From the NCBI GenBank assembly GCA_965235115.1, contig OZ249436.1:18106001-18170000 (forward strand): a DNA stretch of 64,000 nucleotides, given 5' to 3'. This DNA comes from Laetmonice hystrix. Its lineage: Eukaryota. Position numbers and translations under genes: made by a program. The notes below the pieces were generated by a model that worked only from the letters and a program-made list of their open reading frames with translations, was not told the origin of the DNA and searched no databases. This document shows positions 18,263-62,900 of this stretch, piece by piece; position 1 is the stretch's first letter; each line of letters begins with the position of its first letter.

Positions 18263-18617
18263 AACATGGGGTAACTGTTAGTACACATACTGTACAGGCT
18301 GTAAACAGTGATGCTAAAACAGATTGTGCGCGGAATCTTTAAAAAAAATCGCGATCTGGCTCATACACACTGTAGTGTGTCATCAGATGGTACTGCTGAC
18401 ATTTCTCAATAATAGGCTGACACCAAATATATCAGACATCAGACCAAATACATCAGACTGAAAAGAGTACAATAATATACCTCTACAATGGCCCCTTGCG
18501 TATAATATGAGTATCTAATACGGTAGATAGTTTGTTTCTTAATATATTTCCATACACTCAAAGTAAATAACAGTAACATTACTCTGGTATTGATTACCAT
18601 GTTATTGATTATGATAA

Positions 18618-19726
18618 GGTCATACACCTCATACCAGGCGTTCCACCTTCCTCAGGAACATGGAGGCCATACACCTCATACCAGGCGCTCCACCTTCCTC
18701 AGGAACATGATGGAGGCCATACACCTCATACCAGGCGCTCCACCTTCCTCAGGCACATGATGGAGACCATACACCTCATACCAGGCGCTCCACCTTCCTC
18801 AGGCACATGATGGAGGCCATACACCTCATACCAGGCGCTCCACCTTCCTCAGGCACATGATGGAGGTCATACACCTCATACCAGGTGCTCCACCTTCCTC
18901 AGGCTCATGATGGAGGTCATACACCTCATACCAGGCGCTCCACCTTCCTCAGGCACATGATGGAGGTCATACACTTCATACCAGGCGCTCCACCTTCCTT
19001 AGGCACATGATGGAGGTCATACACTTCATACCAGGCGCTCCACCTTCCTCAGGAACATGGAGGCCATACACCTCATACCAGGCGCTCCACCTTCCTCAGG
19101 CACATGATGGAGGTCATACACCTCATACCAGGCGCTCCACCTTCCTCAGGCACATGATGGAGGTCATACACCTCATACCAGGCGCTCCACCTTCCTCAGG
19201 CACATGATGGAGGCCATACACCTCATACCAGGCGCTCCACCTTCCTCAGGCACATGATGGAGGTCATACACCTCATACCAGGCGCTCCACCTTCCTCAGG
19301 CACATGATGGAGGTCATACACCTCATACCAGGTGCTCCACCTTCCTCAGGCACATGATGGAGGTCATACACCTCATACCAGGCGCTCCACCTTCCTCAGG
19401 CACATGATGGAGGTCATACACCTCATACCAGGCGCTCCACCTTCCTCAGGCACATGATGGAGGTCATACACCTCATACCAGGCGCTCCACCTTCCTCAGG
19501 CACATGATGGAGGCCATACACCTCATACCAGGCGCTCCACCTTCCTCAGGCACATGATGGAGGTCATACACCTCATACCAGGCGCTTCACCTTCCTCAGG
19601 CACATGATGGAGGTCATACACCTCATACCTGGCAGCATATGAACTTAAACCTCATACCAGGTGCTCCACCTTCCTCAGGAACATGGAGGCCATACACCTC
19701 ATACCAGGTGCTCCACCTTCCTCAGG
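18618..19726. repeat. 50-bp minisatellite (~21 copies, some 47-bp variants) just downstream of the MALT1 stop
   Basis: Unit CATACACCTCATACCAGGCGCTCCACCTTCCTCAGGCACATGATGGAGGT; period 50 (18721 vs 18771). Confidence 0.96.
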
Positions 19727-25800: not shown

Positions 25801-27818
25801 GCGAACTTCAGTAGAACTGAGTGTAACATAGAATCTAACTTGTACTCTTACCGTATATCAGGTAACGTCAGTGTTTTATCACAGCAACCATCAAGTTTAA
25901 CCATCTTATCGTTACAATAATACCACTGGTAATAGGGATGTGGGAACCCGATGGCCTCGCACGTCAATGTCAGTGTCGCCTTCTCCTCAACCTCTGCGTC
26001 CTCAGGATGGACAACGAACTCGATGGGCTCTGATTTAAAAACATTACAGTTAGTCATTTTTCCTATATTTTCAGATGTTTTAACATTGAAGCACACTCTG
26101 GGACAGTCAAGGACTTTCCCCCTCATTACAATGGGATAAGACTCAATTGTGCAGGCACTTGTAAAGGTCCCCTGTATCAATCCGTCAGGATTCTATTTTT
26201 TAGATATAATCTATTCATTGAACCTATTTACACAGCCTACTTCCAGTGTAGGTGGCTTTACCTGGTCGGCGGAGCAGCTCCAGGGCAGTAAGCAGGTTTG
26301 CTTTATCGAGGTACACTGCGAGTTCTCGGACTGTCAACCCTCGGGTACTAAGTTTATCAAGCAGTGATTTAGAACAGCTCCCACCTGCCGTCTGGATGCC
26401 ACGCTCCACTTCACTGATATCGAGATCACTGAAATAGAGGGATTCTGAAACTCTGCATTCTCCAAGGGGGCTTCACCAACATGTTTCTACTTACCAACCC
26501 ACTTTACTTTCTATAACCGTGCTTGTAGAGCTCGAGTAGGTCAAAATTTCAGGAGTTTTCCAAGAATGGTCAGAGGTTTTTGCTGAATTTTAACATATAA
26601 TGACCAGAATGGGCTTTGGCATCCTCTAGTTTCTGAGAGAACAGACCCCTAATGCATAGCATTTTGGAAGTCTTACTGTGTTTATCAATTTGAACTCAAA
26701 TATTTGAATGTCCTTGCATACCTGAGCCGAAGGCGTTCACAATCGATGACCATGAGCAGCTGCTGCCATCTGTTGGCTACATCCAGGTTCCTGACGAGGT
26801 CAAGGCCGACGTTACCAGGAAGGTCACCAAAGTACTTGATACCTGGCATGAGGAGCCGGATGGGCAGGCCCTGCTTGTCATCACAAGCTGGGATCTGGTC
26901 AAAGCAATACAAGAACATGTCACGTTAGGCCTTGGGCCAGGTCCTTGGTCGCCGAAGTGGCTGAGTGTCACAGACGTTTTTGTCGACCACTCAAAGACTT
27001 CAAGGTCGCCTCGGGTGAGTGGGTGACTGTCCGTTTGCAGCAATGTGCCCTCTTATACAAAATTATCTAAAGCCCTGACAGAGTATCATGGAGGACAGGA
27101 ATTGGCTTTAATCCTTCAACAGGGGGAAGTCACACTGAATATAAACTCACACTCCATTTATCAAGGATTCGTATCCCTTAAACTATAAAAAAATTGTATG
27201 AGAGATTTGATCATAGTGATACTTGATCCTACTGATGTTAGGAGTTTAGGACATTACCTGATCAGGTCTGATTTCATAACCCAGGAAAGTGTGAAAACAT
27301 TGTTACCTGGTTCCGGTGTTGTGAGTATACATCTCTGTACACATGGTGTGGGTTCACGTCCATGTTCCATATTTTCTCTGCGTGTGACTTCATGACAAAC
27401 ATCCTGTTGTCACTTTTTGTGCTGTGCTGCCTGTAACGCGACATGTGGGGACTTTCTTCCTCCTGGTTGTCCTCGCACGACGACCATGGACTGGCCTTAG
27501 GTAACAAAACAAATACATACCGTCACAAGTCAAAGCAAAATACATTAGGTATAAAACTACCTCACAAACAGGTCTGGGTAACAAAAATACAAAACTCTAG
27601 CCAATGTGAATCGTCCATTTCATTCTCTTTGGTGCCATTCCTGAGTTGAGTAGATTTGAGTGAAACTAAGACTCAAGTACTTTTTGAGAAACTGGGCCTA
27701 GTAGTCAACTCAGGGCACTTCCTGAGAGAAAAAATGTTTGAAAACACTTGCAAGCTCTTATATTACGATACAAACTACTTGAGAGAATTCTTGTTGTTCT
27801 ACTTACCATTTGTGCCAT
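19826..27818 (-). CDS. MALT1: Type-1 paracaspase (MALT1-like): death domain, Ig1, Ig2, caspase-like domain, Ig3; 16 coding exons, ~756 aa
   Basis: Exons 27818-27807, 27495-27307, 26894-26722, 26428-26262, 26029-25852, 25396-25132, 24580-24484, 24267-24220, 23811-23605, 23278-23098, 22470-22390, 21963-21842, 21522-21370, 21151-20994, 20820-20725, 19969-19826; all GT-AG and phase-consistent. Motifs KVALLIG, FMVLSLVDL, LFFYVGHG, IIDICR, PEIRSNL, GLQRL, VDLGWPLVSKL. The first two exons are less certain than the rest. Confidence 0.92.
22038..22142. repeat. 23-bp tandem repeat, ~4.5 copies
   Basis: GATTGGTAGCAGCTCAATGTGAA repeated. Confidence 0.85.
22550..22869. mobile_element. hAT-like MITE (related copies at ~37925-38010, ~41000-41222, ~60300-60370)
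   Basis: Termini CATGGTTCCCA...TGGGAACCAT, flanked by TTAAATT; internal AAATTCCC(A/G)GACTTTTCC repeats shared with the other copies. Confidence 0.6.
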
Positions 27819-31528: not shown

Positions 31529-34491
31529 TCATATTTTTACTGCCACCTTATCCTTGTGTTTCTTCATGTGCCAGTTGAGAGCATTTCGTTGGCGACAACT
31601 GTATTCACAGAACTCACATGTTAAAGGTTTCTCCCCAGTATGAATCCTGGTGTGAACCTCAAGTGCATGACTTGTCTTGAATTTCTTCCCACACAATTCA
31701 CAAAGATATGAACGCAACCCTTGATGCACAGAACTCATATGCTCGGAGAAACGCCCTCTGTTATATGCATAAAAGTCACAAATGGAACAGTGGAAGTGTT
31801 TCACACCCACGTGGGTCATTTCTATGTGATCATGCAAAATGCGTCTATTTCCAAAATATTTTTGACATATGGCACATTTCACGTTCTTATGTGCCTGGGA
31901 CCTGTGCTGTCTGAAAGCTCTGTAAGTAGTAAATTGTCTGGAGCAATCCTGGCACTTAAAGTCTTGTCCCTCTACTTCAGCCCTATGTACTGTTTGCACG
32001 TGTTTGCGAATATTTCCCCTAAGAAATCGCTGTCCACATATTCCACATGGGTAATAACCCTCTTTATAAGTTTTATGACTTGCCAGATCTCTTTTTATCA
32101 CCTTGATGTGTTCACAGACAGGAGAACTCCTATCCCACTCGTGCTGTCTCTCGAGGTGAAGGTGAATCTGGTATCGATGGATCACCTTGTACGGACACTT
32201 CACACAACTAAACATTGTCTTTTCATGTTGATCTTCCACGTGGAAGACAAACAATGACGGAATGGTACACATGAACGTACATTCGGCACACACGTATTTG
32301 TCTCCTTTGTTTCCCCCTGGATTTACTAATTTTTCAAGATCATGAGCCTCGGCTAGATGCTTTGTGACTTCTTGAACTCTATCCTCAATCAATTCCTTCC
32401 ACTGGTACCCACAGAAACTGCACATCTTGACCTCTTGATCACCATGACAACTGAGGCTATGAGCAACCATCGGCTGGTATGTATCAAAAGTCTCCTCGCA
32501 AAAGTTACAAGGGAAAATCTCCATCTCGATGTTCCTTTTCAGTTCCTGTGGGAGTGGGACATTGCTCTCAACCATTTCTTCTGTTGACTCTTCTTTTGGT
32601 AAATGTTGGTCCTTACACTTGTTCTGTTTTTTCTTTTCTTTTTGTCCTATTTTGCAAGTTGGGTTCTTTTTCTGTTTCTTCAATGTACCTGTGCGTCTTG
32701 ACCTGGTCCTCTTCATGGAGTTGTTTGGGTCTCCAGTTACTGCAACATCAGCTTGATTTCTCTTCGTCTTCCATGAGGATCCAGGAAGCCAACTAGGGTC
32801 ATCACATTTCTCTTCTTCTCCTTCATTGTCATCATCTTTATCTTCTTCTAGTTCTTCCTCTTCTTCTCTGTCTTCTTCTTCATCAACTTTTTCTTTTGAT
32901 AGTACAAGTTCACCATTAACTTCAATTGTTTGTGCTTCTTCTTTCACTCTGATCTCATCCAGTGAAAGCTCTACATTCAGAAATAACCTATCACTCTCTT
33001 TAGGTTGTATAATTATAGGTTCACGCTTATCTGGACTTGTTCCAGCCAGCTGCCCATTCAGAAGTTCTACAGGTGTCTCAGCATTACTGAGACTTGGCTC
33101 CCGTCCTAATGTCGAATGTACCATTACCAGTTGTCTAGCCTCCTCTTCATCACTGTAACATAAATAAAGAAACTGACATGAGTAAATTACGCATAGTAAA
33201 ACATATGCCAATTTGTTTTGGTGCGCGTACCCAAAATTTTTTTCTGGCGGAAACCCTGCACAGAAAGAGATCACTTCATAAAAACTGTTCCATATTTCAC
33301 TGAACTTTAGCACTTGAGTAGCTAGAGGAACCTTCAGCTTCAACGATCCCTCTAGCCAAGTACATCATCAACTCACCTACAACCATGAACTGTTTCATGT
33401 ATGGATTCCATCTTGTGCTTCAGTCTGATATATGTTTGTTCCTCGGGACTAGGGGTAGCCAGTCGTTGAGATGTGTCACCACATGCCCCACGCCTCAATC
33501 CAAGGGATTCTTCCAACCTGTAGGTTAAAATTGTTACATACCCCAATAAACATTTGGGTCCTACATATTTCAGATCCTAAACGATTGTTACGTTCCCCCA
33601 TTGGTTTAACATAGGATGAGAAAACACACTTTCAAACATCGACCAGATTTTTGTCAATTTTGACATCTAAACCATGAAGTTTACGTATTTTTTCATATAC
33701 GTAAAACAGGTTGGTGCTCTTGTTTTGTAAGGTACAACAAGGAATGCGCCCTAACAATGAAATGATAATATTAAGAAGTTGACAGCTGCCAGCTCCTATG
33801 GGAGTCACAATGCTAAAGTGACGAGACTACGATCGCGTGGGTGCCAAACGTCACAGTTCTCGAGATTTCTTGTGCTGTGTCGTGACCTACTTACGTCCCC
33901 TATTACTGCATCTACATACCAAATAACTTGGTAAACCATAATTATTGTGAATCAATTTTTTGTGTGTATTTCGAGCCCTGGTATTATTCGCGAAATTGAC
34001 CAAAATCTGACCTCCCTAGCACTGTCTTACATACTTTATGGCACGACATGTTTTTCATATTGATTCTGTGAACATATGCTATGACTGAGTAGACAGCTGT
34101 AAAAATATCCCCTGTGTCGAAAAAAATTACAAAAACTAGTTAGAGTGCATGCAAACAATGCACGATGAATGCCGTCATTTTGGCATGTCACAAATCATTC
34201 AAACTGGTCTCATGATCATGTGAATCTCGCTCTGATTACTTGAGATATAAACACACATGCCACCACTGCTATGTTAGCTTACATATCCAGCAGAATCTGT
34301 GCGAAGGCAGCATCGTTGTCTTCACCAACGACTGTTTTCAGTTGCCTCCATCGTTCAGCCTCAGTACCAATGTCAACTCGCAGCTGCCTGTACCGCCTGC
34401 ACCGTTCCACGTTTCTTTTCTTCTTTTCTGATTCTGACAGCACAAATTTACGGCGACGCTGAGTTTTTGGTTGGGGTGTGCTTTTCGCCAT
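31529..34491 (-). CDS. C2H2 zinc-finger protein of the ZFP91/ZNF653/ZNF692 family, 3 exons, ~657 aa
   Basis: Exons 34491-34283, 33517-33377, 33152-31529 (GT-AG, phases join). N-terminal RRYRQLRVDIG..WRQLK..DAAFAQILLD module, acidic tract, about 10 C2H2 fingers; last finger HTGEKPLTCEFCEYSCRQRNALNWHMKKH resembles the ZFP91-type terminal finger. Confidence 0.88.
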
Positions 34492-37027: not shown

Positions 37028-37877
37028 TAGTTGGGTCATTTCTGGCACTTCCGTGGAGTCCAAACAAAGGTTTCTGTATGAATTTGTCATCTTTGAGGGT
37101 TACTTTGAAAAATTAGCGAGGGTGACCCTTACTTAGCGAGGGCGACTTTTTCTATGGTTTAGGCTACAGTGCTGATCAGCATATACTTTCTGGGGTTTTG
37201 GGGGTCAAGGAATTCATTTTTGGTATTTTCTTAATGATTCGACCTCCTTTTGACTGAGAAATCCAAGCTGGCTGCCGTTCACCATGTTGGAAACAGGCTT
37301 CTCAATGGTGTGTGGCTATAATGCTGATCAATGCAACCTTTCTGGTTTTTTTGGGTCAGGGAATTCATATTCAATCACTAAAGGCAGGTGGCTTATACAG
37401 GGACCTAATCACTCCAGTAAGGAGGGGTACATAAGGTCCTAATCACTACAGGCAGGTGGGTTATAGGCTCCTAACCACTACAGTCAGGATGGATATAGGG
37501 GCCTAATCACTACAGTCAGGTGGGGTATATATGAACCTAATCACTACAGTCAGGTGGGGTATATAGGGACCTAATCCATCTTGGATTTGTCGGTCAAAAC
37601 GAGGTCGAATCATTACGAAAATACCAAAGATGAATTCCTTGACCCCAAAAACCCCAGAAAGCATATATGCTGATCAGCACTGTAACCTAAACCATAGAAA
37701 AGTAATTTTTAAGGTGGCCCCTGGTGGCCATTTTGGATCCTTGCGAAGTTAGCCCACACTTTTGCGAGGGTCACCCTTGCTAATTTTTCAAAGTAACCCT
37801 CAAAGATGACAAATTTTCCATATAGAAACCTTTGTTTGGACTCCACGGTCAAGGAAGTGCCAGAAATGACCCAACTA
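37028..37877. mobile_element. Fold-back element with long inverted arms and an internal ~33-bp tandem repeat
   Basis: TAGTTGGGTCATTTCTGGCACTTCC... mirrored by ...GGAAGTGCCAGAAATGACCCAACTA; arms similar over ~240 bp; CTAATCACTACAGTCAGGTGGGG repeats at 37373-37575. Confidence 0.8.
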
Positions 37878-39247: not shown

Positions 39248-39411
39248 TCAAAAAAAAAAGATCAGTAGACAATCAGTAGACGTAGAAAAAAACATTATGC
39301 ATCGGTGTGCGCCAATGAGAGCGGGTCGCTCTTCGGCCAATGAAATGGGCTAACGCGCTGCTGTGTACCTGTCTCTATCTTCGATAGGAGTTGAACAGGG
39401 AACCAGTCAGT

Positions 39412-40320
39412 GTAGGTAGTTCCTATGATTATCGTCAGATGGCGCCAGGGTTTGTGCAAGTAGTTCCTATAACTATCGTCAGATGGCGCCAGGGTTTGTG
39501 TAGGTAGTTCCTATAACTATCGTCAGATGGCGCCAGGGGTTGTGTAGGTAGTTTCTATCATTATCGTCAGATGGCACCAGGGTTTGTGTAAGTAGTTCCT
39601 ATAACTATCGTCAGATGGCGCCAGGGGTTGTGTAGGTAGTTCCTATCATTATCGTCAGATGGCACCAGGGTTTGTGTAAGTAGTTCCTATTTGGCGACTG
39701 GTCGCAACTGGTTGCTTTGTCTGAGCGGGCTGCCAACGCGACTGGACCGTTGCTAGCGGTAATAACCAATAAGAGACAATCATTTATAGTTCGCTTGGCG
39801 ATTACAACGTCACAATCGCATTGTGACGTAACAGGATCACTGTAGCAGCGGCAGTCGCGTTGCTCTGTGTGAGCTCTCCCGTCTTTCAGTCGTGTGCAAC
39901 TTGCGATTCACTGCAACTGTTGCCGTTGCAAGGAATCGCGTTGCATCGCTCTGTCTGAGCCCGCCATAAGTGACCTGTCGCTCCGGGGGTATTTTTTGGA
40001 TGTCAGAATTCAAATTCGGGCCTAAATTAGCCCGTTTTTTGCTGGTGTGTACCTGTCTCAATCTCCGAGGGGAGGGAGGAGTGAGCAGGGGACCAGTCAG
40101 AGGTTTGTGTACGTAGTTCCTATAACTATCGTCAGATGGCGCCAGTGGTTGTGTAGGTAGTTCCTATCATTATCGTCAGATGGCGCAGGGTTTATTTAGG
40201 TAGTTCCTACGATTATCGTCAGATGGCGCCAGGGGTTGTGTAGGTAGTTCCTATGATTATCGTTAGATGGTGCTAGGGTTTATGTAGGTAGTTCCGATGA
40301 TTATCGTGAGATGGCGCCCG
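39412..40320 (+). repeat. Two arrays (6 + 5 copies) of a 44-bp unit containing CAGATGGCGC
   Basis: Unit GTAGGTAGTTCCTATAACTATCGTCAGATGGCGCCAGGGTTTGT at 39412-39690 and 40102-40320. Confidence 0.9.
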
Positions 40321-41441
40321 GGACTACCCTTCTCTGGCTGGGGTCGGCAGAGATCATCTTCCTGGCCTTCCTTCACCGACCACCTTGACAACAGCATCTT
40401 CCTTGCAGTCCTGCCCCCCCCCCCGACTGGTTACCGGCTCAACTGCTTTTGGAGATAGAGACAGGTACACAGCAGCGTGTTAGCCCATTTCATTGGCTGA
40501 AGAGCGACTCGCTTCTGATTGGCGCACACCGATGCCAAACTTTCGCACTCGTGCTGATATTACTCCGCGCTTGCCGCCTCGTCTGATACAGAATCCCATA
40601 TCACACAGATGGCTGCCAAGCGGCCATTCTGAACGATATCAAAAATTTCTTCCACCTGCATCGATCATTCATGCTACGAAGGTACCTGATCTTGTGTTGA
40701 AATAATGAAGAGGTTTGGTCCACGCGTTATTGAGATATCGTTGTCCAAGAACAGATTGACGCCAATACAGACGTATGTAAGGCGCCACGTACGGACGGAC
40801 GTAGGGTTTTAGAAGACCCCGGTAGGCGGCTAAAAAGTATAAATAGTCCACAATTTACCCTAATTTGTAACAATTTGTTAGAATACTTAAAGCGAGCTTG
40901 ACAGATTTGCGGTGTTGACTGTTGAATTCATTTCTGTATGTCTTTTAAAATGTAAGTCTGAAAAGTCTTCCACATGGCTCCGATGCTCTCAGCTTGAAAA
41001 AATTCCCAGACTTTTCACAGATCTTTGACTTTTTCCATAACTCCTTTAGGACTCCTTCCAGTTTTTCTTAGAATTTGACTTGGATGATGATCCGCATCCC
41101 AACTGTGAATCATTCACCTGGAATTCGAGTCTCTTATAAAATTCTTGGACTTTTCCCAGTCCAGGCCCCAGTATCAAATTCCCAGACTTTTCCTGGGGTT
41201 CCTGGACTCGTGGGAACCATGCATACACTACCTACCAGATTATGGATTCTTTAAAAAAAGGATAAAAATATTTACACCTTAAAAAGGGATAAAAAATGGC
41301 TTGTCTTTTCATTAAAAAGTACCGTATAATACTTTTTAAAAGTACAAAGTGGCAGCACTGCCTTCACATTGAAACTCAAAAATGGAAGAGCTTGGATCGT
41401 TGTAAATTATAAAGTGGAAAAATATGTTGTTGTTATCTTTT

Positions 41442-44500: not shown

Positions 44501-47500
44501 GCTGAGGCCACGCCTTGCGTACTGCTACGGAGGTCAGCCTCATACTCCTTACACAACTCACGCCAGTTCATCAGTTCATGGGTGGTGAACAGACTGAGTA
44601 GCTCTCTGAAAGTACCAGGAAGTTAGCAAGAAGAAATCAAAGCATGGTCAAAACTAAAACTGGACTATGAACACATTTTATTATGTCAGAAGTTTATAAA
44701 GTTCCTTCACACTTTGATAGCAAAAGATGCATGCATATTAGCTGCTTGAAATCAAAGTACATGTACAGGGATCAGATTTTGGGGGATAAATTGTGAAAGA
44801 CTATTATGAAAGAATGATATAGACCATAAAGCTTCGATATGTAATAATCAGTGCAATTCGTTCCATTTGCAGAGTGACAGAAAATGACTTACTTGTACTT
44901 TGGAATGTCACTGATCGTTTTGTCCTGTTCCACTCTATGGATGAGGTCTGACTGTTCATTGTCAAAAGGGGCCAATACCAGATAGAGAACTACACACTTC
45001 AGTACCTGCAGGTCAGAGAAGAAACAACATTTCAGTGTCCCAACATGGCCAAGTAAGCAACATCCACGTTTTGATAACACCGTACAACATGAGTGATTCA
45101 GCAGCAGAGCAGTATTTGCAGAGAGAAACTTCCTTGTCACAATAAGGCTCAAAAAAGTTTGAGGGGCTATTCATTGTGTTTTTTTGGAGGAGCAATTTTT
45201 AAAATTTGATTTGCAATTTCCTGAAACTGATCATGTACCTGAATCAGATACCATCCCCCTCCCCCAAACGAACTTTTTATTGTAGTTTTTGGGGAAAAAA
45301 CAAGAATAACATCTTATTTTGGAATAACAGTCACTTCAAAGCAGCCAAGTTTACAAGGGCTACAGGAAAAATTTCATAAATATTTAGCAATATCAAAACA
45401 CAACATCACAGATCATGTACACAAACACGTGTGGATCTAGCATATTGGAAGGGGGGGGAGGGCAAAACAGAAATATGGCAGAAGTGGTGTCCAAAATGGT
45501 CAATCAGAAAGCTCTGTGAATAAGTATGGAAAAGTAATGCCAAATCGAGGAGGGGGAGGAGCTGTCTTGGTTAATTTAAAGCTATTTTTTGTGCGCTTAT
45601 TTTGAGCGCCTTGCACAACATGGCCATCTTTTACCAAATGAGGCATTTATGTGAGGGAGCTGTTTTACCTCCTTGAGTTTATCAGAATCGTCCTTGATGA
45701 TATCAGTGTTAGCCATGGCACGGTAGTGTTTACAGATGGCCAGGTAAGCCCCATCATGTTGGTCCAACTCAATCATCAGCTCATAGAACTTCAGCTTCAA
45801 CTCCTGCAATCACACAATTCACACCTGGCGCACGTCACAGCAGGCTAAGAAAAAGGTTACTAAACAGGAAAAAAAAACTTTCCATACAGCCGAGTACAAA
45901 CTCATACGAATACCGGACTGTCTTCTACCATCCCAATCGACTTGTTTTTTGGGGGGCAAATTTGAAATACTTTTACCGGCTGAATATTGACACGTTAAGA
46001 CAAGTCATGTGTAGGTTACCTACAATACAATGGGTTGAATGGCCACTTACATCAACTTCCTTCTCTTCAAAGAATTTTGAGGATATTTTTTTACTGATGA
46101 TTTGTGTGCGGATGTAATCTTTTTTTGCCAAACACAAGCGCATCTGCTCAAGGATAAATTCGACTTTTTCACGCTTTTCCATGGATCCAAACGTTTCGAC
46201 CTGTAAAAGAAAAAAACGCTTATGTAAAGTATCAAAGCTGTAGTTCCACTATATCTTTCAATTTCCTTAGCCTCACTGGTGATGCAAAAGACTATCAATA
46301 TAGTACAGGTGAAGCACCGACAGTTCCATACTGCCGTAAATTTGGTAATTAGGTAATGTACCATACTTTGGTGTCTATAAGACACTACTTTTTAACCTAA
46401 GATGACCACTGTTATTTTTTGGTTATAAGATGGCCCTCCATATCCAGAATGTCTTACATTCTGGAAAGTTGACATGATGAAGAGCAAATCACTTGCCTGT
46501 AATTCTTGTAAGATAGTTGCAGCCTCTGCAACATTACCCTGGTCTTCCTTAATCTTGGCCAGTGTGCGGGTCAAACGAGCACGTTCAATCTCCACATAGA
46601 TCTGAAATTAAATACACTACCTTGCTAGACAACCATCAGATTCTTCACCGTTTCGATGCTGAGAAAATTTCTTCTTTTATGGGAATTTGGGCCTATATCC
46701 TAAAATTTAGCATTGCCAAGGGTGAGGAAAATTGTTACCTTGCCAGCTGTGACTGTGCGAAGTGTATCAATGAGTTTCATCTTTGTTTCCAGGTTTGGTG
46801 TCTTCTCAACGTACGTACATGCCTCCTGCACCATTTTTGTCACCGCCTGAAAAGATTCAGGTGAACTTTAAAACAAGTACACAGTTAAGTACACAGGTAC
46901 ACTGGGTACACAGTGAACCCCATTTAAAATCACATCTAGGTCAGTTGACTAAGCCTTAAATCAGCTCTTCTTAATCATGCATAGAATATGATAGAATAAA
47001 TTGCATAAATTTGTAATCCCTTTTACAACAACTGTAAGCAAAATTTTGAGGAGGAAAGAGTACTTCTTCTACCTCTAGTGTGAACTTACCTGTTTTAGCT
47101 GTCCTCGTCGCTTTGTTAGCAAGACTATATTTTCATTCAATAAATCCCATTTCTTGTTTTCGAAACACAGCTTTACAATGGCCTCCAGGATGCGGCTAGT
47201 TGAATGCATGTCAGCACCCTTAAACAAAATGAATTACTGTGACATCTGTGAGATGATACTGAGAGAGTCTACTGTTATCAATATTCAATTTAAGAATAAG
47301 GTAATATTTAACCAAACTGGGGCAATGTCAGACAGTATAAATCATAGTTTTAGTACTTTGAAAAAGGCTGGTCAGAACCATGGAACATGTGCAATATTTA
47401 AAAAAACCAGATTCTGATCGCCAAGCAATACAGGCAGGATCCCCTTTACCCAATGGTTTTCTACATTACCTACATTTTTCTCTCCTTTAATTTGACTATC

Positions 47501-50500
47501 CTGTGATTCCGCCAACTGTTCCAAAATGTACCTGACACTACCGTTCCGAGAGAAAAATGTAACCTGTAGTGTAATAATAGAAAACCATTGGGGAAATGGG
47601 TTCCTACCTGTATTTCTTGGCAATCAGAGTTTCTAGTTACTTACTGTTCTGGTTTGTTTCTCGAGTGCCAATAGAGTATCAATTGCTTCTGGTACCTTTC
47701 CTGACTGAAATGAAATAATCCATTACATATTATACAAAGCTGTCTCACATCCAGTCTAGTAGTCACTGCTAACACCTGGGAAATGTTTGATATAAAGGAT
47801 GTATTTTATATAATCTGGTAAAACACAAAGCAGGGCTTCCGCTAGGCAAAAAAATCCTTTAGCCACTGTGGCTAAGCCACATGTGAGATGCTTTAGCCAC
47901 TGTGGCAAACCAGATTCTAATTTTTCTAGCCACACTCTAAGCCAATTAGCCACAAAAGTAATTAGTGAATGCAAATATGGCAAAACAGAGGCCAGTCAGT
48001 GACTGCATGGGGGATTGGGGCTCCTGGGCCCGTTTTTTGGGGTTTATTTTTCCACCGTGAGCAAGGGTGAGCTGAGCTGAGCAAGGGTGAAAATGAGCTC
48101 ATTCTCACCGTTTTCGTGCTTTTTTGGGTGCTTTTTTTTCATGAAGCGTGCTCATGGCAAGCAAGCTCGCGGAAAAACACCCCAAAAAACGAAAACAGTG
48201 AGCAAAACGGTGAGCATGAGGTTCTGCTCACCCTTGCTCAGCTCAGCTCACCCTTGCTCACGGTGGAAAAGTAAACAAAAAAACTGGGCCCAGAAGTTGC
48301 ACAGGTCTGACCCTTTCCGGAGTATGCGTCGGCTGGAGAGCGTCGGCTGCCAATCCATCAGCCTTTTCAGTTGCCTGTCCTAAAGAGACAGAGAGCTGGG
48401 GCCATAGCCTGAGAAGACCGACAGCCGACGCTCTGCAACCGACGCATGCTCACGCAAGGGGTCAGTCCCTGCAGGTGGTTGACAATCATGATAGTTAGGA
48501 GTTCTCGGCTGCTGTCTCGAATTATTTTCGCCGGTTATGTTATATTATCGCCACAGATGTAAAAGCCGTTTTTTTGCCTTTCGGCCGAGTGGCGAGGGTT
48601 TTGGTACGGTATGTAACAAGCGCCACAAGCAACAGGCGGCCCGCCGGTGTACTTTTGTCTCCGGCCAGTGTACTGAGCACCTAAAGTGACCGCCAGTGTC
48701 CATTTTCACTGAGCACCCATGCCTCAGATGTGGATCTGTTGGGTGTACCCTTTCTGGTGGACCCACACAAATTGACACAATTGCAGGCCTCGAATTAGAA
48801 GTTAAAAGGGGCATGGCAAAAACTCCCGTCGATACATAAGAATCAACATCAAATTTTTCCAGGGCACGGCGGCAAATTTACGAGTAATTCGAGGCCTGCA
48901 ATTGTATCATAGGCTAAGTGAAAAGTACAATTTTGAAGCAGTAACACAGTCAAATTGTTTATTTAAAGTGTCCTTAGATTGAATCTTTTACCCCCCCCCC
49001 CCCCCCCCAAAAAAAAAAACCCCAACAACATGGGAATCCAGGCTGTCCCTGGACCCCCACAGGCCCCCAGACCCCCGGCTCGCCACCGGTGTGACATTTC
49101 ATCCTGTGGAGAACACAGCAGCCCCAGGCTAGTGTTACAATTTATGGCTGTAAGATATCAGATCTATGTATACATTCAACTTGTAATTTGAAGTTTCTGT
49201 ATTGAAAATTAGTGGGGGGGGGATATCCCCCCACAGAATGGCACAGATCCTGAGTGGGGGGGTTGAACCCCCCCAGTCTCCCCCCTGGGGAAACCTAGCC
49301 TACGTAGTAAGCCTCAGCGAGTGAGGCTTACGACCACTCAATGTTAAAAGTTGGTGTGTCACGGACACCTCCAATTCATGTCAAAATGGCCGTGATAGGC
49401 AGAGAGCGAAATTCGTCGATTCCAGACTTTGTGCTGCCCTTATTATGTCTCATTGTGCTTTCCAAACTTGGAAATAAGTAAGATAAGTTACTTTAAGCGT
49501 GTTTATCAATATTCAGTCCAGATATATGGGCAGGGGGGGTGTACATCGAAATCAGCCGCCGCTCGAAATCGGCTGCGCATAAGTTACAGGCGGCCGTACT
49601 CGACCAGGTGGTCACAGTGGTTTGAAATCGGCTGGGCGGTTAAGGTTAGGCCTAACGTTAGGGTTAGTGTTAGTAGGGTTAAGGTTAAGGTTAGGCCTAG
49701 GGTTAGTGGTAGTTTAGTCCCGCAGGCGGTTCTGCCAGCAGAGCTGCCCACGTGCTACGCCCGCTCATCCGTAGCGTAGGCTAGGTTGTTACGGGCGGCC
49801 GATTTCGAGCGGCGGCCGATTTCGAGCGAGACCGGCAGGGGAGGGGTTTTCATGGTGGTCTAATGATTTGACCGAACACGCCAGGAACTTACACAAAGTG
49901 GCGTCCGTCTCTACGGTAGTAGTACAGAGTCTCTGTCTAGGCCTAGGCCAGGGGAAACCTAGCCAACTCGTCAGCTCTGTGTTCCAAACAGAGCTGACGC
50001 TATGGTGGCCCAAAAATCAAGGGACTTTGTTATATTGCCGTCCCCAAACCAAAAAATATATCACAAAGTTCGGAACTGTGCTTAGCTTTGCGGTGGTGTA
50101 AACCTTTAAGGCGGTGGCGTAAATCTTGATGAATAATCACAACTTTTATCCAGCGACTCGCGCATGTTTACCGAGCGGCGCCATTTTGCCTGTCTCGCGG
50201 GCATTACGACAGCCTTGATCATCACGCCCTCTGGCGTTACGACAGCTCAAATCGGGGGAGCATTCATTTTGCGATATTGGCCCTTCTGGAACGCTTTAGA
50301 CCGCAGTTGTATAGAGTTGTTACCGGGTATTAATTCATTTGGAATTAACTCTACCTAGGCCAAGGTCCTGCAAGACGTCGATATCGCCTGTGCACTGCAT
50401 GCTCGATCAAATGGCGCGGACTGCCTATCAGACAAAGTTAGTTCGCGGCGTAGATATTACGAACTGCTCCCTGACACCGGAAGTGACGTTTGTCCCCAGT

Positions 50501-51222
50501 AATAGACCATGGCGGCGGAATGGAATGAAATGTGCTGCTTTGAACATATTTCACCAAATTTCTATGAACAACAGGGACATAAAGATCTTTATTTCTTATG
50601 CAATCGCTCAAGATTAGTCTGTACCATGATTTTCTTCGCGTGATTACACGGTAGGAGGGAGGGAGTAGTGGTAAGGTGTTTCGATGGGATTTAAAGTGGG
50701 CTTACGTCCATCTCTCGGCTAGCCTAGAGAGATGGATATTCTGTCTAGGGGAAACCCTGATAGTAACCATATCATATGGATCAGTCAGAGGCAGAGCCAT
50801 CAAGTTTGACATAAATTTGTATTTGAGCCTTGAGGGAGCCTTCCAACTATCACAAACATAGTCGCAACTCTGGAGGCAAAAAGGAGCTGGGTTTCTGCCA
50901 GAAAATATATTTGTAATTGACGGGGGGATAATCCGGGTGTAATAATAGTTAGATTACGATCTCTGGTAGTCTTGGGCGATATTTCGGGTATTATCCATCC
51001 CCCCACCCGGCCACCGTGCGTAGTGACTTGCAGAAACCGGGAATAGACTAGTCTACCGCTAAGCGTTTGCACCTGAGGCTGAGACTGAGTTACGCACTCC
51101 ACATACTTAGCCCCGTCATAGATTATACTTACTTTAGCTAATTTTTCGCATTCCGGTATTTTCTCGTCCACAGTGGACGCGTAATTCACCTCCATTTTCT
51201 GTAACTTGCCGTCGTCACCCAT
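41591..51222 (-). CDS. PSMD12: 26S proteasome non-ATPase regulatory subunit 12 (Rpn5), 11 exons, ~451 aa
   Basis: Exons 51222-51133, 47704-47645, 47218-47090, 46846-46739, 46601-46497, 46200-46051, 45803-45669, 45005-44893, 44605-44428, 43434-43357, 41800-41591. Motifs [61 protein letters not shown]. Intron 5 is GC-AG. Confidence 0.97.
42486..43097. mobile_element. Hairpin-ended non-autonomous element (Crypton-like)
   Basis: Long hairpin 42486-42714 centred on GAGGGCATCGCCCGAG; distal end with CACGTGACC..CCAATCAGA; same architecture as the element at 13985-14451. Confidence 0.55.
48024..48293. mobile_element. Harbinger-like MITE
   Basis: CTGGGCCC...TTTTCCACCGTGAGCAAGGGTGAGCTGAGCTGAGCAAGGGTGA mirrored at 48228-48293; CWG ends. 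Confidence 0.75.
49545..49835 (-). mobile_element. Second copy of the TAACCC-containing element
   Basis: Inverted ends TCGAAATCAGCCGCCGCTCGAAATCGGC / GCCGATTTCGAGCGGCGGCCGATTTCGA; internal GGTTAGGGTTAAGG array; homologous to 38117-38405. Confidence 0.7.
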
Positions 51223-51421
51223 CTTGGCTGCAGAGTCGCGACTTTTTTGTCGTCGGTGGCCGGTGGCGCCGAGCCGGAAGTTGATTTCATTTTGAGGCTC
51301 TCGGTCATCACGCGAGGAAGGCCGAGTACCGCGGCCGTGTGGGTGTGTGTGATTGTTGATAAGTGGAAAGGACTACTTGTTTGCGTGAACAACGCTGTTC
51401 TATTGAGATATCAGTGTCATC
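51223..51421. promoter_or_regulatory. Bidirectional promoter / 5'UTR region between PSMD12 and PITPNC1
   Basis: Only 199 bp between divergent ATGs; CpG-rich; ETS/GABP-type CCGGAAGT at 51274-51281; YY1-like CAAGATGG overlapping the PSMD12 ATG. Confidence 0.7.
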
Positions 51422-53940: not shown

Positions 53941-56900
53941 ATAGACAGACATATCTGCCCTCCACACTGCTACGCCCTGAGACATGGGCATGCCACAAAC
54001 TGGGGGGAGGGGGACCTGGCCATCAGCACACAAAGAGAGAAACTTGCATTTCCCCGGGAAACATGGGGGGCAGGGTCCATTGTTCTACTCAACCACCAAT
54101 GCTTCCTTTTTATGGAAGTGGTAGTGGCCGAGTTGGCATGGGCGTTGATACCTTATGCTCTGAGAGTGGGGAAGTTATTTTGGGGCATGGGTTCGATTCC
54201 AGAAATGTGTTATACAATTTTCTCTTTCCCCTCCATGTCAAGTCTGAGATTCACAAGTTGTTTTTCAGTTACCTCGGTTACATTGTATCATTGTATCTAA
54301 ATATCATTTCGTTTTCCTCGTTCAGTAAGCTACCTCTGTGGGTCCAGTCATTTGTGCCAAACATATTCTACATCACAGAAAAAGCCTGGAATTACTATCC
54401 CTACACGATCACAGGTGAGTGGAGATTCATCTTTTCTTCTGGCTTTATTTGATCATATTTAAAATGTTTTAACTAAGTCCAGGATCTTTTTATGCTCGGA
54501 ACCTGAAAATACACCCATAAACCAACTAACCCTTTAAAACTAAATCGACCAATGCAGGATGAGACCATCTTTACATTTCTTTGTACTGTTGCACAATGAT
54601 CAAGGATGATCGGGGGACAGATAGGAACTCGTATATGAAGTTTCATATGGTGCCATTTTCCATGACCTTCTACGCCTCAAGGAATGGCATCAAATGAAAG
54701 GACTTCCTATGCTTGTTTAACCCTTTGCAGTCTGGCCCGTACCTTAATCGTTTTCTATACAGCCTGTTGAAAGGATGGAAAATACATAAATTACATGGAT
54801 GATTTCATTTGACCTTTAAGGGTTACTCCAGGTCAATGGCAATGCTTCTAAAGGAAACCCATATACGAGTTCCTATTCATAGTTAAATAGTTTCCAAGAT
54901 GCAGCTACCTGAAATGTCAAAATTTCAGACTGTGCTTTTAACCTCTATTTCCATATACTACTCACATGCAGATGTGACAGTAACCGGCTTTTAGGTCTAG
55001 AAATGACACCCCCTCCCCCCCTCGACCAGACCAAGCGATCTGAAAGTGCTTGTAATAATTCTATCAAGAAACCCTGGCCAGCACTGTTTTAATACAAGTA
55101 CTAACTTACTGTGTAATCATGCTTCATTCCCCACTTCCCTCCTCCGCCACCGCCAATGTTACAAGGCTACTGGCATGGTACAGTTTTTCTGTTGGTGGAA
55201 ACAATCTACTTACTAGTGTTCTATCAGGGATGTGCCCACGCACCCGATTTTAACCAAGTATTTTTATTAGGCCTATCATCTGATAAATGTGTACATTAAC
55301 TTCTCATACCATCTCTTGTTCATTTATACCAAGGCGCTAACCAAACGGCCCTCACCTGCACCCCTTGCCAACTGAAAACCTTGCGCCTTCGGTGCTAGTG
55401 CAAAACTACCGCCCGCCACTCAATATTTTCTGGCCACATCCCTGGTTCTATGATGTACTAGATTTGTCTTACACGAGTCCCAGTTTACAGAAGATTTGCT
55501 ATTATAACATTACCTACTAGTATTTATGCATACAGTTTGTGCACTTATTCTCTTTCATGTCTGTTGCGATAACCAGAATACACGGTGAGTAATACGCTAC
55601 TGTCTGCCTAGCTGGAATTTGAGGTTTGAATTGAAACATTTAAGAGTTTGTCCATGCTTTACCATATGCAGAAGTTGGTAGAAACTGTATATAGGTTTGG
55701 TGAAGGTGGCTGTATGAACTTGGTGGGTGTGTTAGTTAACACAGGGCTACGGCTCAGAGTGCCTCCTTTCAGCTTGGTGGCACGGACCCAGCACTAGAGT
55801 AATTTAGGGGTTTCTTTTATATTACTGATAGTGATACTAACCCGAGCTGTGTCTTCATGGAAAAAGTCCAGAAGCTGTTTCAAGGTGGAAGACACTGGTA
55901 GTGTGGTACCGCCTTTGACATGTAGCGAATGTACCAGTAAATTACATGTAAATGTACTCAAATGTCTAATCTTGCCTCTAAAATAATATGTGTGTTACCT
56001 GTGGGAAAAGCATAAACCTATTTTAGCCCCAAACCCGAAGGCTTGCCCAGGGTGCTTCTAATTTGACATCCGTCCATATATATGTGCATACATCCAGCCA
56101 TTTCTCAGAAGTGTATTGATCAAATTGTATGAAACTTTACACAATATTCCTGGATGTTCTGAGGATGATGCACGTGAAACATATTTTTGACATTATTCAA
56201 AATGGCCACTTGGCAACCATCTTGGATGTAGGTAAGCACATTTCGAACAATAACTCGAACTAAACAATCCTGATTTTTTTTTCAAATTTGGTGCAAGGTA
56301 GATGCATAAGAGGAGAAATGTACATGTGTATTCTTAATTCAGAGCAAATATGGCAACATGGCAGCCATATTTTTTTTACTCCCAAAATAACACTGTTTTG
56401 GCTCATATCTCGAAATTGGTGCAAGATTTATAACACAATACCGTAAATTATCGTTTTAAATGAAAAATGAAAATGCGTTCAGAAGATTTATTGAGAACAG
56501 TCATCTGTATAAAATTCCTTTTACTGGCTTTTGTCTTGGCCTTTTTGTTTTATTGAGTATTGTCTCACGTGTGTGGAACTGTCTGCACTTTGTATTCCTG
56601 AGAGTTGTGGTAAAATTCCCACGCCCAAAGCATGATGTGTTACTTGCTGTCCTTGCAAGAATTGAGAAGTCAACATTATTGGGGTGGGGTGGGGTGAAAA
56701 TTGTATGTAATGATTGTGCATGTTCTTTGGTTGTAGAGAGGACATAATAACATTTCACCTTTGTTGGTTCACTGAGGTATGTTTGGAGGTTGTATACTTT
56801 CAGATCAGCTATTTTAGACAAATGAAAGCGACAAATTTTTGCTGACTCCAGGTTGCAGAAGGATATGAATGTAATCAATGATACATCGGCACATTTCAAA

Positions 56901-59900
56901 TAGCGTTCGGTACATTGACTTTTCGTACAGGATATACCTCGGGGAGAGGCCAATCGTCTGACAGCCCAATGGTCCAACAGACCAATCCCCTATGGGTTAG
57001 AGTTAAGGTTAGGTTTAGAGTTAGTTTTCTTTGGTTTTAGGCCAAACTGGGCTGTCGGACTATTGGGCTGTCAGACTAAAGGACCTAGAGCCATACCTTT
57101 AGAAGAGACCTGTCGGTATTCCTTTCTTCAGAAACAAAGGGTTCATTACATAGTGGTGTTGCTAATGCTGTATCGTGAGACTTTTATGCTCGTGGAAGCA
57201 TATTACAGCATGTAGAGTAAAAGTATGGCTTTGTATCACCCTAGAACAGCTTTCTGATCAAAGGAGGACGTAAACACTAGAACAGTAGTCATCACAATAT
57301 AGTAACTCTCTTCTTAAGGGTTTCACTTTTAAGTTGTATGCCTATAGTTTCATAGGCGGATCCAGGGGGGGGGGGATGGTCGGCGACGTCCGGACCCCCC
57401 CCCCCCCCCCCCTCAAATTTGCCAAATTTAATTTTTTATAACCAAAATGCCTTATTGTTTTTACAACGGACCCCCCCTCGCTTTGCCCTTTTTATGCTGG
57501 ACCCCCCTCGGATCCCCCCTGAATGTAGACCCTAGATCCGCCCCTGAGTTTTGAGGCAAAAGTGGCCAAAATAGTAGGCCTACTGCCTATAATGCCGGGC
57601 TGTCCAAAGGGGCACGTTTCAATAGGATCCATACAGGATGTCACTTTCTTGTAAGAGTGTCACACCTACCAAAATTGCTATGGTAATCACGAGCTCCACT
57701 CCTGCAAGTTGCAGAGCTAGGTTTCCATTGAATCTATTGTGACACAGAACAGTCTCATTCATGATCCTTGGACTACCTAAAAACTATATAGATACATATT
57801 GCACGTAATGATATTAATTAATGGTCGGAGTTTTCAGACCAGGAATTCTCGTACCTGCCCTGTCCCATCTTTCTGATCTTCGGTATGCACATATGGCCGA
57901 ATGCAAGGACATGGTTAGTCTCAAGATTAACCCAATTCGCAGATTTTCGCCTATTCCCAGTCGCCAGAATGTCACATTTTTCGCTGAGAGAGAGAGAGGA
58001 CACCCCTCCCGCACCTGCCCCCTAGTTGCACCACAAAAGTTCAGGCTTTTTTTCCTTCACCTGACCACACCCCTGAGATATTAAGTTAAGCCATTCCTGG
58101 GATTAACTTTATAAAATTTGTTGCATCTGGCCATAAGGGCTTTAGGAGTGGATGAGATACATGTATCTAGCTTTTCCGCTACTGTCTCTTTGGTAAGGTT
58201 TCCTCCACTTCGCACTCAAATGATGAAATGTGAGGTATATATTTTGTGTTCCCCATAAAAGTAAAGAATAGAACTAACATGCTTTTTTCCGGTGTGGTGG
58301 TCCCAGTATTTTACATAGTGAAAACCCTCATGAAATTGTCCTGTCGGAGAGACACAGGTTAGAAAACCTGATGTATGCATGTCGAGTATGATAATTGTAC
58401 ACCCCTATAGACCCGTAGAAAAGGGGATGAGATTGAAAAAGTTATCATTCGTTGCTTTCTGTTCCAATGTACAGGCGCTAGTGTTGATCTTCTAGTTTCA
58501 GATTTCATATTATAGTGTTTCTACACGGTATCTCTATATTTACAGTGTTCCTTCATCCCCAAGTTCTCTATTCACATAGAGACACGATATGAGGACAACA
58601 ATGGTAGCTCAGACAATGTAAGTTATCTTGGATTATGCCTGATTATTTGATTGCTCGATTACCTATCACGTGATCATGAATGATAAGTGCATTCAGGCCG
58701 ACACCCCTCAGGTAAAATCAGGTAAGTATGAGTTTTTTAACACAGCACACATGTTCACATATTTAATCAGAGGGATCATAAAGTAAAACTAAAAGTTGCT
58801 CAGTCGAGCTTAACTGATTTACTAAACATACTAAGAAGGAAAGAAAGAATGAATGAACGAACAAACAAATTAAGGAAGGAACAAATTAATGCAGTAACAA
58901 ATATAGCACTTCGTAATATTGTGCAATCTCAAATTTATTGTACTCTTCCAAATGCAGTAATAATACTTTATAGCCAAAAACCTACAGGAAAAGCTCAAAC
59001 TATCAATATAATATTGACATTGGGCCATAGCTGCAGTCCAAAGCGGAAACCGAATTCAATAGAGTTTAGCTAAGTCTGTGAGAGCCTGCAATGGAGACAA
59101 CCAATCAGAAGGCCTCGCAACATCATGTGACACGTTATGTGACTGTGTTGGTGCAGAAGTTACACCCCCTGCCACCAGGATCGCATGGCTAGAAGGTCAC
59201 GACACAACAGACTTCTCCGGTCCTGTCCTTGTGTACATGTGCCCCAGTCTGAACGAGTCCTAATGAGTCTTCAGGACTAAACACTCCTCCAGACTCACGA
59301 CAACTAGTCCGTTAAAGTCTTTCATCCATGCTTCTCGCGCGAGTAATAATGTGTGCATATATGCTGGATTCTGGTTTGATTAGTATAGCTAATTGCATTT
59401 TACACGACCCTGGGGGGGGGGGGGGGGGCAGCTCAAACAATAGCTGCCAGTGGTAAAGTCTCCTGGTGACAGCATTACATGCACCCTGAAAATCCTTGAA
59501 AGTCGTGGAATATTTTATTTTCATTTTCCAGTCCTGGAAAAACAGTAGTTGTCCTGGAATAATGTGGAATAACTGTAATGTCATGTTGTTGCTACTCCAT
59601 ACTCCTCCATCCATCTGATCTACTATAGAGTATTAATAGTACAGTAACAAATACATGTGCAGAAGAGCTCTTATGCAGAGACTTTCACAGCAGGGACCAA
59701 ACGATATCACTGGGCTAGAGCCTGATGCATACCGATGCTGCCAACCGTTGATGTTTTGGAACTGCAGGTGCTGGGCCTTGACCAGGAGCAGCTGGTGGAC
59801 CGAGAGGTGAGCTTCCTTGACATTGCTACAGACCCCGTACCCGAACACAAGTACAAGAAAGTCGAGGTGAGTGGAATTCAGCCGCCGGGTCACAGCAGCG

Positions 59901-62900
59901 GCTTTTCTTTAGTGGGGTTTGAAGGTTTTGGATAGGTGGCACTTGATTCACAGTTTAGGGGTCTGGAGTTATCATGCTATCTTTTAAACAATGATTTATT
60001 ACTTTTCGAGAAACGTTTTAAGTCTGTTATGATTCAGATACTTTTCTCTGGAATAGCTGTATTTTATACATGGGTAGGGCAGGGACTAGGTTAGGACTAC
60101 TTTAATCTCTTAGAATGAAGCAATAATAATTCTGGAATAGTTGATTTTGTGTGATGTACTGTGATTACTGTGTTTCCTATACTAGGATCCTGCCAAGTTT
60201 AAGTCCGAGAAGACTGGGCGTGGACCACTAACAGAAGGATGGCGGGTGAGTCAGCCAGACAGTCACATTCAGTTACAGTAGATACGTCAGAGATTAATAC
60301 GCAGGGTTACCACAGGTCAGGAAATAGTCAGGAATTTTTTTTCGCAAGGTCAGGGAAAAGTCAGGCAATTTAGTAAAATCTTGTAAGGTTGGCCGAGCTT
60401 TTGGGCCTTTTAGTTGGATCTGATCATGATGACAAATCCCCCCCCCAAATAATTACAATGAAAAGAGTAGTGGCAGGCAGACACTACTTTTCTCCCCTAA
60501 CTTATCCCTATATTTTTCCATTTTGACTCACCACTTCATCAAGCTAATACCCACACGATCACACACTGATTTCGGTTCTTCAAATATACATTGTACTGAG
60601 TACAATGAAAACACATACATTTGTAAGTCCAAATGTATACGGGGTATATATTTTCATCACCAGTAGGATGTGCAAAGGGTTTTGGTCCATTCCATTGAGT
60701 TACCTCTCTCGTACGCATCATGTGCTGTGCTGTGCACGACTGCATTAGCGAAGTACTGGCTGTCGACATAGAGCGTTTGTGGTCATGCATAAGTTGCATT
60801 GATGGGAGTGGCCACGTCCTCATAAAATGGTGATGTGAGGGCCACAGAAATCAATCACAAATGTACAACAATACGTGCCGCGACCCGCCACACAGGATGC
60901 GTATCCGTCGATACTGACCTGGCCTCTAATTAAATATCAAATGTGACTGTACTTTCTTATAAATATTTGAGCTATATTTTCAGCCTCTGTGTTTTCATTG
61001 CCGTAATTGCGATAATGAATGGAAAAGAGTAGAGCCCAAACTTAAGGACAATGTGAGTGCAAGTAGTCGATTGGTTTCTAGGCTCAGTCGTACACTGGCT
61101 TAGGCCTAACTGATTTAAAATCCGGCCCCAGGGAGGGATCTTGTGGGTAAGTGGTCAGTCAAAATGGGAAATGATAAGTTGCCAAAAAAGAGTAGTGTCA
61201 GCCTCTCGCTACTCCTTTCATAGCAAAGTAGGACACCGTTTTCGTCAAACCCTATGTCGGGTGTTTTCGAGTCAGAATGTCAGGAGTGGAGCAGAGTACT
61301 GACTAGGGTTTGACTTGTCTAACTTACGTAGTGTTGATTGCAATTAGATGTATGACTGAGTACAAGCTTTAATGAGGTGTGGTGATTCCAGGAGGGCGAG
61401 ACTGTGAAGCCCATCATGTGTTCGTACAAGTTGGTGAGGGTGAAGTTTGAGGTGTGGGGGATGCAGACCCGAGTCGAGTCGTATACCCACAGTGTTGTGC
61501 GCGACATCCTACTACTAGGACACAAGCAGGCATTCACCTGGATCGATGAGTGGCACGGTAGGAGACACTGGCACCCACCCATGTCATGGCACGGTAGGGG
61601 ACACTGGCACCCACCCATGTCATGGCACGGTAGGGGACACTGGCACCCACCCATGTCATGGCACGGTAGGGACACTGGTACCCACCCATGTCATGGCACG
61701 GTAGGGGACACTGGCACCCACCCATGTCATGGCACGGTAGGGGACACTGGCACCCACCCATGTCATGGCACGGTAGGGGACACTGGCACCCACCCATGTC
61801 ATGGCACGGTAGGGGACACTGGCACCCACCCATGTCATGGCACGGTAGGGGACACTGGCACCCACCCATGTCATGGCACGGTAGGGGACACTGGCACCCA
61901 CCCATGTCATGGCACGGTAGGGGACACTGGCACCCACCCATGTCATGGCACGGTAGGAGACACTGGCACCCACCCATGTCATGGCACGGTAGGGGACACT
62001 GGCACCCACCCATGTCATGGCACGGTAGGGGACACTGGCACCCGCCGATGTCATGGCACGGTAGGGGACACTGGCACCCGCCCATGTCATGGCACGGTAG
62101 GAGACACTGGCACCCACCCATGTCATGGCACGGTAGGGGACACTGGCACCCACCCATGTCATGGCATGGTAGGGGACACTGGCACCCACCCATGTCATGG
62201 CACGGTAGGGGACACTGTTACCCACCCATGTCATGGCACGGTAGGGGACACTGGCACCCACCCATGTCATGGCACGGTAGGGGACACTGGCACCCACCCA
62301 TGTCATGGCACGGTAGGGGACACTGGCACCCACCCATGTCATAGAACGCAGGCAAATTATTATGGCTGCAATATATGCGGCACAGGCAGAAAGCTATAAC
62401 ATTAACAGATTAACATTTTGCCCATTATTCTGATGGTATAAAGTGCATAATAAATTGTTAAAAACATGCCAGTGAAAGCTGGGTGTCATTCAGGGGCGGA
62501 TTTAGGGGGGGGGGCGAGGGGACCCGGCCCCCCTTTCGTCAGGGTACCAATCAGAAAAAATTTTGTTGTTCGCAACTAAAAGCAATCATTTTGCTTTCTT
62601 AGAATGCAGGAAATGCCATTTCAGAGACTCAAAATTGTCCGGGGGGCATGCCCCCAGACCCCCTTAGCAGGGCTCGGGCTTTGCCATCAGACGACCCCCC
62701 CCCCATTTCCAAAATCCTGGCTCCGCCCCTGATATTTACATTGTGTTTATGGTAAAGGCAAAAAGAAAACGTGGTAAAGGCAACCCCCCCCCCCACCCAC
62801 CCCTACCCAGAATAGAAGAAGAAAGAAAATGTTTCTTATGTTAAATGATAACATTTTCTCTCGCTTTTTCAAAGGGATTTCTATTGAGGAACAATATGGC

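Follow-up and report, generated by a model that had tools for sequence, protein, structure and literature searches.

The window, a stretch of 64,000 nucleotides of Laetmonice hystrix contig OZ249436.1, carries a predicted PITPNC1 gene in which the end of exon 8 falls inside the first unit of a long minisatellite (Table 1). The gene encodes a PITP domain (PF02121 match, E 3.6e-21), and 94 homologues were returned from 100 candidates, those with names being mostly cytoplasmic phosphatidylinositol transfer protein 1. Matches bearing that name reach 80% over exon 8, with 91–108 bits at the top, and PITPNC1 rather than PITP alpha/beta is the best named match on the basis of match scores, not of a tree. 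Solved PITP alpha/beta score 44–48 bits in a search separate from that of the PITPNC1 scores.

The gene model includes a candidate micro-exon 4 of 8 nt (55577–55584, plus strand), which has AG and GTGAGT signals and is required to complete the PITPNC1 frame; as predicted from sequence, it restores residues seen in homologues. The exon 9 acceptor has the best pyrimidine tract among the AG sites listed (17/19). Another AG lies inside intron 8 at 62874, with a tract of 16/19 and 51 codons open in the exon 8 frame, and could be that of a minor alternative last exon or a product of chance.

The neighbouring multi-exon gene, at about 45700–51230 on the minus strand, is arranged head-to-head with PITPNC1, with its start some 200 bases away from the start codon of the latter. 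We take it to encode a proteasome subunit, PSMD12-like, and the pairing is presumably the arrangement found at human 17q24. A Pfam scan of 100 of the 302 open frames of the window also identified, all on the minus strand, a methyl-CpG-binding protein C-terminal domain at 4507–4773, two Ig domains and a caspase domain at 23591–26192, in what is presumably a MALT1-like gene, and a 611-aa frame with C2H2 zinc fingers at its end at 31532–33364.

Table 1. Coordinates of the gene, its relevant exons and the repeat features, with the basis for each assignment
Feature	Position in window	Strand	Basis or remark
PITPNC1 gene of nine coding exons, predicted product 284 aa	51422..63301	+	tblastn with four homologues and splice signals
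PITPNC1 exon 8, 166 nt	61392..61557	+	Pfam PF02121 positions 179-230 of 246; 5' joint from exon 7 (GT..AG) in X4 record 25
Minisatellite, 36 bp x 22	61551..62342	+	Each unit joins the 7 closing bases of exon 8 to the 29 opening bases of intron 8
Donor 1, authentic site (ACG/GTAGGA)	61555..61563	+	X4 record 25 departs at 61558; homologue continuity; 6/9 consensus positions
Donor copies 2-4 (61593, 61629, 61665)	61591..61671	+	Predicted to be in frame with exon 9; +12, +24 or +36 aa
Copy 4, 35 nt	61659..61693	+	G run short by one G; C>T, also in copy 19 (window assembly)
Donor copies 5-22 (61700-62312)	61698..62318	+	Predicted not to keep the frame of exon 9; would lengthen exon 8 to 309-921 nt
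Degenerate 7-nt match to unit start, 5/7	62342..62348	+	3' edge of array; may have seeded the initial duplication
PITPNC1 exon 9, coding part to stop codon	63138..63301	+	Terminal helix and disordered tail; homology, P0001 model

A 36-bp array at the end of exon 8

In the window assembly, Tandem Repeats Finder describes the minisatellite as a head-to-tail array of period 36 with 22.0 copies, 97% matches and a score of 1507, and a 22-copy array is far beyond chance. A real exon–intron boundary lies within the first unit, seven bases in, and the splice signal is kept in the copies, all 22 of which have GTAGG and an equal consensus count. The last exon bases of the donors fall at 61557, 61593, 61629, 61665 and 61700 and then at 36-nt steps to 62312, in each case where the original prediction had placed them. 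Its account of the unit (seven exon bases and the GTAGG donor within 36 bp, free of stops and a multiple of three in length) is likewise borne out by Tandem Repeats Finder and by a listing of the units. Its description of the donors as near-identical holds for the 22 GTAGG motifs but needs two corrections around them, since copy 18 has TGGCATG ahead of its donor, a change at −2, and copies 1, 12 and 16 have A at donor position +6. Copies 14, 15 and 19 carry internal changes. The consensus unit makes up 14 of the 22 copies and point or length variants the other eight, with some variants common to distant copies of the array.

Other large minisatellites of the window are at 2574–4213 (68 x 24), 18617–19724 (50 x 20), 39410–40322 and 37373–37576 (34 x 6), with sizes following the order given, and the list includes two 44-bp arrays of one unit. 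As judged from flanking translations only, none of these has a clear exon edge inside its unit.

Four public runs (X1–X4), all from one sample of one study that is possibly the source of the window, carry the stretch, and their contigs were compared over 59700–61600, which takes in only unit 1 and donor 2 of the array. X1, X2 and X3 each have a contig that begins upstream of exon 8, crosses unit 1 and ends at 61593; the end at that position was considered as a clue to array structure and rejected, being an outcome of the 31-letter words. Contig depth over 61556–61600 is 464, 342 and 388 in X1, X2 and X3, compared with 48, 66 and 35 just upstream, values that do not amount to a copy number. The exon–intron boundary and a multi-copy unit are present in the reads of these three DNA runs.

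That the whole array is an assembly artefact, absent from the genome, is scarcely credible given that these contigs cross exon 8 into unit 1 at such depths and that point variants occur in 8 of the 22 units, some of them common to distant copies, even though no contig listed spans the array and every run derives from a single sample that may be the window's own source. A narrower error, confined to the copy count or to the one-base deletion in copy 4, is much likelier than that, and we hold it to be possible at well short of even odds. The loss of one base from a G run, which is the change seen in copy 4, is a frequent long-read error, and the frame switch that follows this copy is accordingly to be regarded as provisional. 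No indel corresponding to it occurs among the contig differences listed over 59700–61600, a stretch that ends before copy 4.

Elsewhere in the same contigs, T is replaced by C at 61493 in one X2 contig, at a third codon position of exon 8 that lies 64 bases upstream of donor 1, and this is a possible allele marker. Over 60049–61243, in introns 6 and 7, X2 and X3 contigs differ from the window by many substitutions and by indels of 7–33 bases, which suggests a highly heterozygous individual.

The donor used in the transcript

Run X4, which its record does not label as RNA, has a GT..AG joint that is absent from X1–X3, and we infer from this that it is RNA. One of its contigs, record 25 (1178 nt, depth 15.1), makes this joint between exons 7 and 8, matches 61391–61558 without differences and then departs from the genome, leaving 931 nt unmatched. 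The intron and exon 9 both begin with G, so that base 61558 is common to them, and an exit at this position indicates that donor 1 was used. The remaining 931 nt have a length that fits exon 9 and a 3' untranslated part, and homology together with this length suggests that the contig joins at 63138. These data support regular splicing at the authentic site in the main assembled transcript form, as represented by one contig of one sample.

The depth of X4 contigs in the bin 61556–61600 is 1.01, a value that the three bases contributed by record 25 suffice to explain (3 x 15.1 / 45). No listed X4 piece covers the remainder of unit 1 or donor 2, which is uninformative: contigs drop rare forms, and X4 therefore speaks only for the main form. 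The X4 word share of 0.26 is consistent with exon 8 and exon 9 without the array, for which 0.21–0.27 is expected; expected shares are 0.40–0.54 with the array and 0.06–0.08 for exon 8 alone.

Donor 1 does not stand out by sequence strength, since all 22 donors match the consensus equally, at six of nine positions. It is weaker than six of the seven upstream PITPNC1 donors, which match at 8–9 of nine positions. Folding predictions rank donor 1 between first and fourth of 22 for openness in all seven settings; of donors 1 and 2, the first is predicted to be the more open in the three settings listed per donor, and the three A-type copies exceed the median G-type copy in predicted openness in seven of seven. 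The predicted opening energies of authentic PITPNC1 donors (3.0–5.9 kcal/mol) overlap with those of the array copies (from 5.0), so that little is explained by structure alone. As the sole cause of the choice, RNA structure was rejected on account of this overlap and of the finding, by the authors of the F7 study discussed below, of no such arrangement in their system (PMC1557585). Weaker RNA pairing at donor 1 may possibly act as a helper only.

The choice of the first among equivalent donors has a precedent in the 37-bp minisatellite of human F7 intron 7, which is present in 5–9 copies (Borensztajn et al. 2006, PMC1557585). As described there, the most upstream donor alone is used, and the identical downstream donors are functional yet idle: the next donor takes over only once the first is destroyed, downstream donors strengthened up to CV 91 fail to compete, and arrays of 1–12 monomers, with units deleted or added, are spliced at the same donor. 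On this default, neither special selection nor a rheostat would be needed for donor 1 of the present array.

Products of the downstream donors

In silico, donor 1 gives a protein of 284 aa and donors 2, 3 and 4 give 296, 308 and 320 aa, in agreement with the in-frame additions that the original prediction had proposed. The first unit of the inserted peptide reads RRHWHPPMSWHG and not RGHW... as that prediction had it, in keeping with the A at +6 in copies 1, 12 and 16. Donors 5–22 would give products of 279–483 aa that stop one codon into exon 9. The frame shift that had been attributed to the 35-nt copy 4 stands in the window assembly; its outcome would be not a new C-terminus drawn from exon 9 but a protein cut short after another repeat peptide and lacking the terminal helix. 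With full intron retention, the reading frame would cross the array and stop at 62399.

The open frame of the unit is expected by chance, as 85% of 20,000 shuffles, in which the 13 boundary bases were fixed and the remaining 23 unit bases shuffled, were stop-free in the exon frame. The period is divisible by three in one of the seven larger arrays listed in the window. With the in-frame repeat peptide as query, a protein search, itself a weak test, returned six candidates, none at E <= 0.001. Matches of the repeat frame to collagen and cornifin were rejected as low-complexity, with no stretch passing.

The place where an insertion would enter the protein is highly conserved in length. Seven residues separate the tryptophan motif at the exon 8 end from the helix motif of exon 9 in 87 of the 94 homologues and in the window model; two of the other seven lack the first motif and five the second, and four of these five are bird gene predictions that apparently read into the intron. 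In an AlphaFold2 model of P0001, built on 57 of the 94 sequences, the junction is a 4-residue linker between helix 226–229 and a terminal helix at 234–252, with pLDDT of about 95. By homology, this terminal helix is probably the G-helix, which closes the lipid pocket as a lid in PITPs (PMC8266687). Donors 2–4 would lengthen the invariant linker, and donors 5–22 would delete the terminal helix. The chance-level open frame and the invariant junction spacing together give no sign of function in the in-frame unit.

We consider it unlikely, though worth keeping in mind, that splicing is leaky without being functional, with donor 1 dominant and donors 2–3 used at about 10% or more, so that 12 or 24 His/Trp/Pro-rich residues are inserted before the terminal helix as tolerated noise. 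Donors 2–4 are in frame and equal donor 1 in consensus match, and the junction is a loop and not a helix in the P0001 model. CBS and 6-16 (cited in PMC1557585), and likewise ABCA7 (PMC5954066), do use proximal copies, such that a +36-nt product would not be surprising. However, the X4 contig that crosses the end of exon 8 uses donor 1, donor 2 is the less open of the two in the predictions above, and in F7 a further 50 clones contained no other form (PMC1557585).

Very improbable, by comparison, is a functional rheostat, kept by selection, in which the proportions of normal, insertion-bearing and lid-less PITPNC1 are set by array length or by the copy-4 indel. Such a device could draw on a unit that is open and a multiple of three in length, and the out-of-frame forms might persist, as a stop in the last exon may spare a transcript from nonsense-mediated decay. 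The lid function of the terminal helix in PITPs (PMC8266687) and the influence that VNTR length has on splicing in ABCA7 (PMC5954066) would also suit it. But the open frame is at chance level, all 87 homologues with both motifs have one and the same junction spacing, and P0001, the closest of the 94 homologues returned (89% over exon 8), has no insertion at the junction. Moreover, retention of one unit in ABCA7 is independent of VNTR size (PMC5954066), and unit number is without effect on the donor used in F7 (PMC1557585). We would be greatly surprised to find a heritable splicing dial in which array length and indel position set the isoform ratio by allele or tissue, donors 2–4 adding a His/Trp-rich linker of 12–36 aa before the lid helix and later donors removing the lid.

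The original prediction had posed a choice between strong selection of the first donor and a repeat-length rheostat yielding insertion and altered-C-terminus isoforms. Use of donor 1 in the main form agrees with the X4 contig, but selection special to this gene is dispensable under the F7 default (PMC1557585). The rheostat finds no support in the contigs of one sample, and its insertion point is length-invariant in homologues.

Origin and relation to known boundary-spanning repeats

We favour, at a probability of roughly 0.8, a neutral, locally arisen intronic minisatellite that started by chance on the exon 8/intron 8 boundary, in the manner of F7 intron 7 and of the 'mirages' of amphioxus, and from which donor 1 is used. 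Slippage or unequal exchange between the 7-nt word at the exon end and a degenerate copy 36 nt downstream may first have duplicated the boundary, and further unequal exchange would have expanded and homogenised the array to 22 units. The 5/7 microhomology at the array edge and a unit that is unique in the window, where the best further match is 22/36, fit a local, microhomology-seeded duplication, and the variants common to distant copies fit turnover by unequal exchange. In the main assembled form, donor 1 is spliced, so that the array is removed with the intron and a normal 284-aa protein results. As in F7, the most upstream of equal donors would be taken, downstream donors making ever longer exons, and weaker RNA pairing near donor 1 may help slightly; the remaining 21 donors would be silent or leak at trace level. 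Against this explanation stands the fact that the F7 rule comes from mammalian cells and not from the present animal.

The array is a further case of a described class, the boundary-spanning minisatellites of the F7 intron-7 or 'mirage' type, and has those of its defining features that can be tested. Like F7, it has a first unit over the exon/intron boundary and near-identical reiterated donors, the most upstream of which is used, but F7 has 5–9 copies with four exon bases, whereas the present array has 22 copies with seven, and the present unit, unlike that of F7, is divisible by three, so that proximal copies are in frame (PMC1557585). The present host is an animal outside the mammalian models, and the array is known here from one assembly.

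Further boundary-spanning minisatellites are those of the interferon-inducible gene 6-16, with 25 pseudo-sites in intron 2, of CBS, with 15–20 units in intron 13, and of LMNB2 and PDGF (cited in PMC1557585). They resemble the present array in similar copy numbers and in a donor reiterated after the exon, but in 6-16 and CBS the two nearest copies are used too. Here the main form is spliced at donor 1, and the nearest copies may serve minor forms. The amphioxus mirages, in Adh3, the globins BflGb6 and BflGb9, troponin C and PGBD5 (PMC3087553, PMC3902484), are likewise tandem duplications of an exon–intron boundary, with units of 10–160 bp, splice signals kept and splicing reportedly undisturbed; they concern different genes in what is probably another animal group, and length instability is shown for those of amphioxus. 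The 25-bp VNTR of ABCA7 intron 18 (De Roeck et al. 2018, PMC5954066) also has about 24 reference units running from the donor onward, with a usable donor in its second unit, but the unit there is not divisible by three, and what VNTR length affects is whether the following exon is skipped, not retention of one unit.

PITPNC1 itself is a class IIB PITP with splice variants, sp1 and sp2, that have different C-terminal extensions (PMC8266687). The host gene is thus one whose C-terminus is varied by splicing in vertebrates; the passages on these variants mention no repeat and offer no tie to the present array. Searches of the literature on PITPNC1 with splice variants or tandem repeats, in part at the level of titles and abstract openings, showed nothing on the array, and supplements may hold more loci. 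Splicing-associated repeats have been catalogued across the human genome (PMC10078293), and membership of that set requires population data.

The finding suggests that the rule by which the first donor wins extends to 22 weak, equal donors in another animal. The locus also makes a natural test case, with proximal copies in frame and later copies out of frame, and the synonymous difference at 61493 could phase the alleles. Should reads show a 36-nt ladder that follows allele length, the lid of a lipid-transfer protein would be under a dial set by repeat length, and only then would the array take on greater importance.
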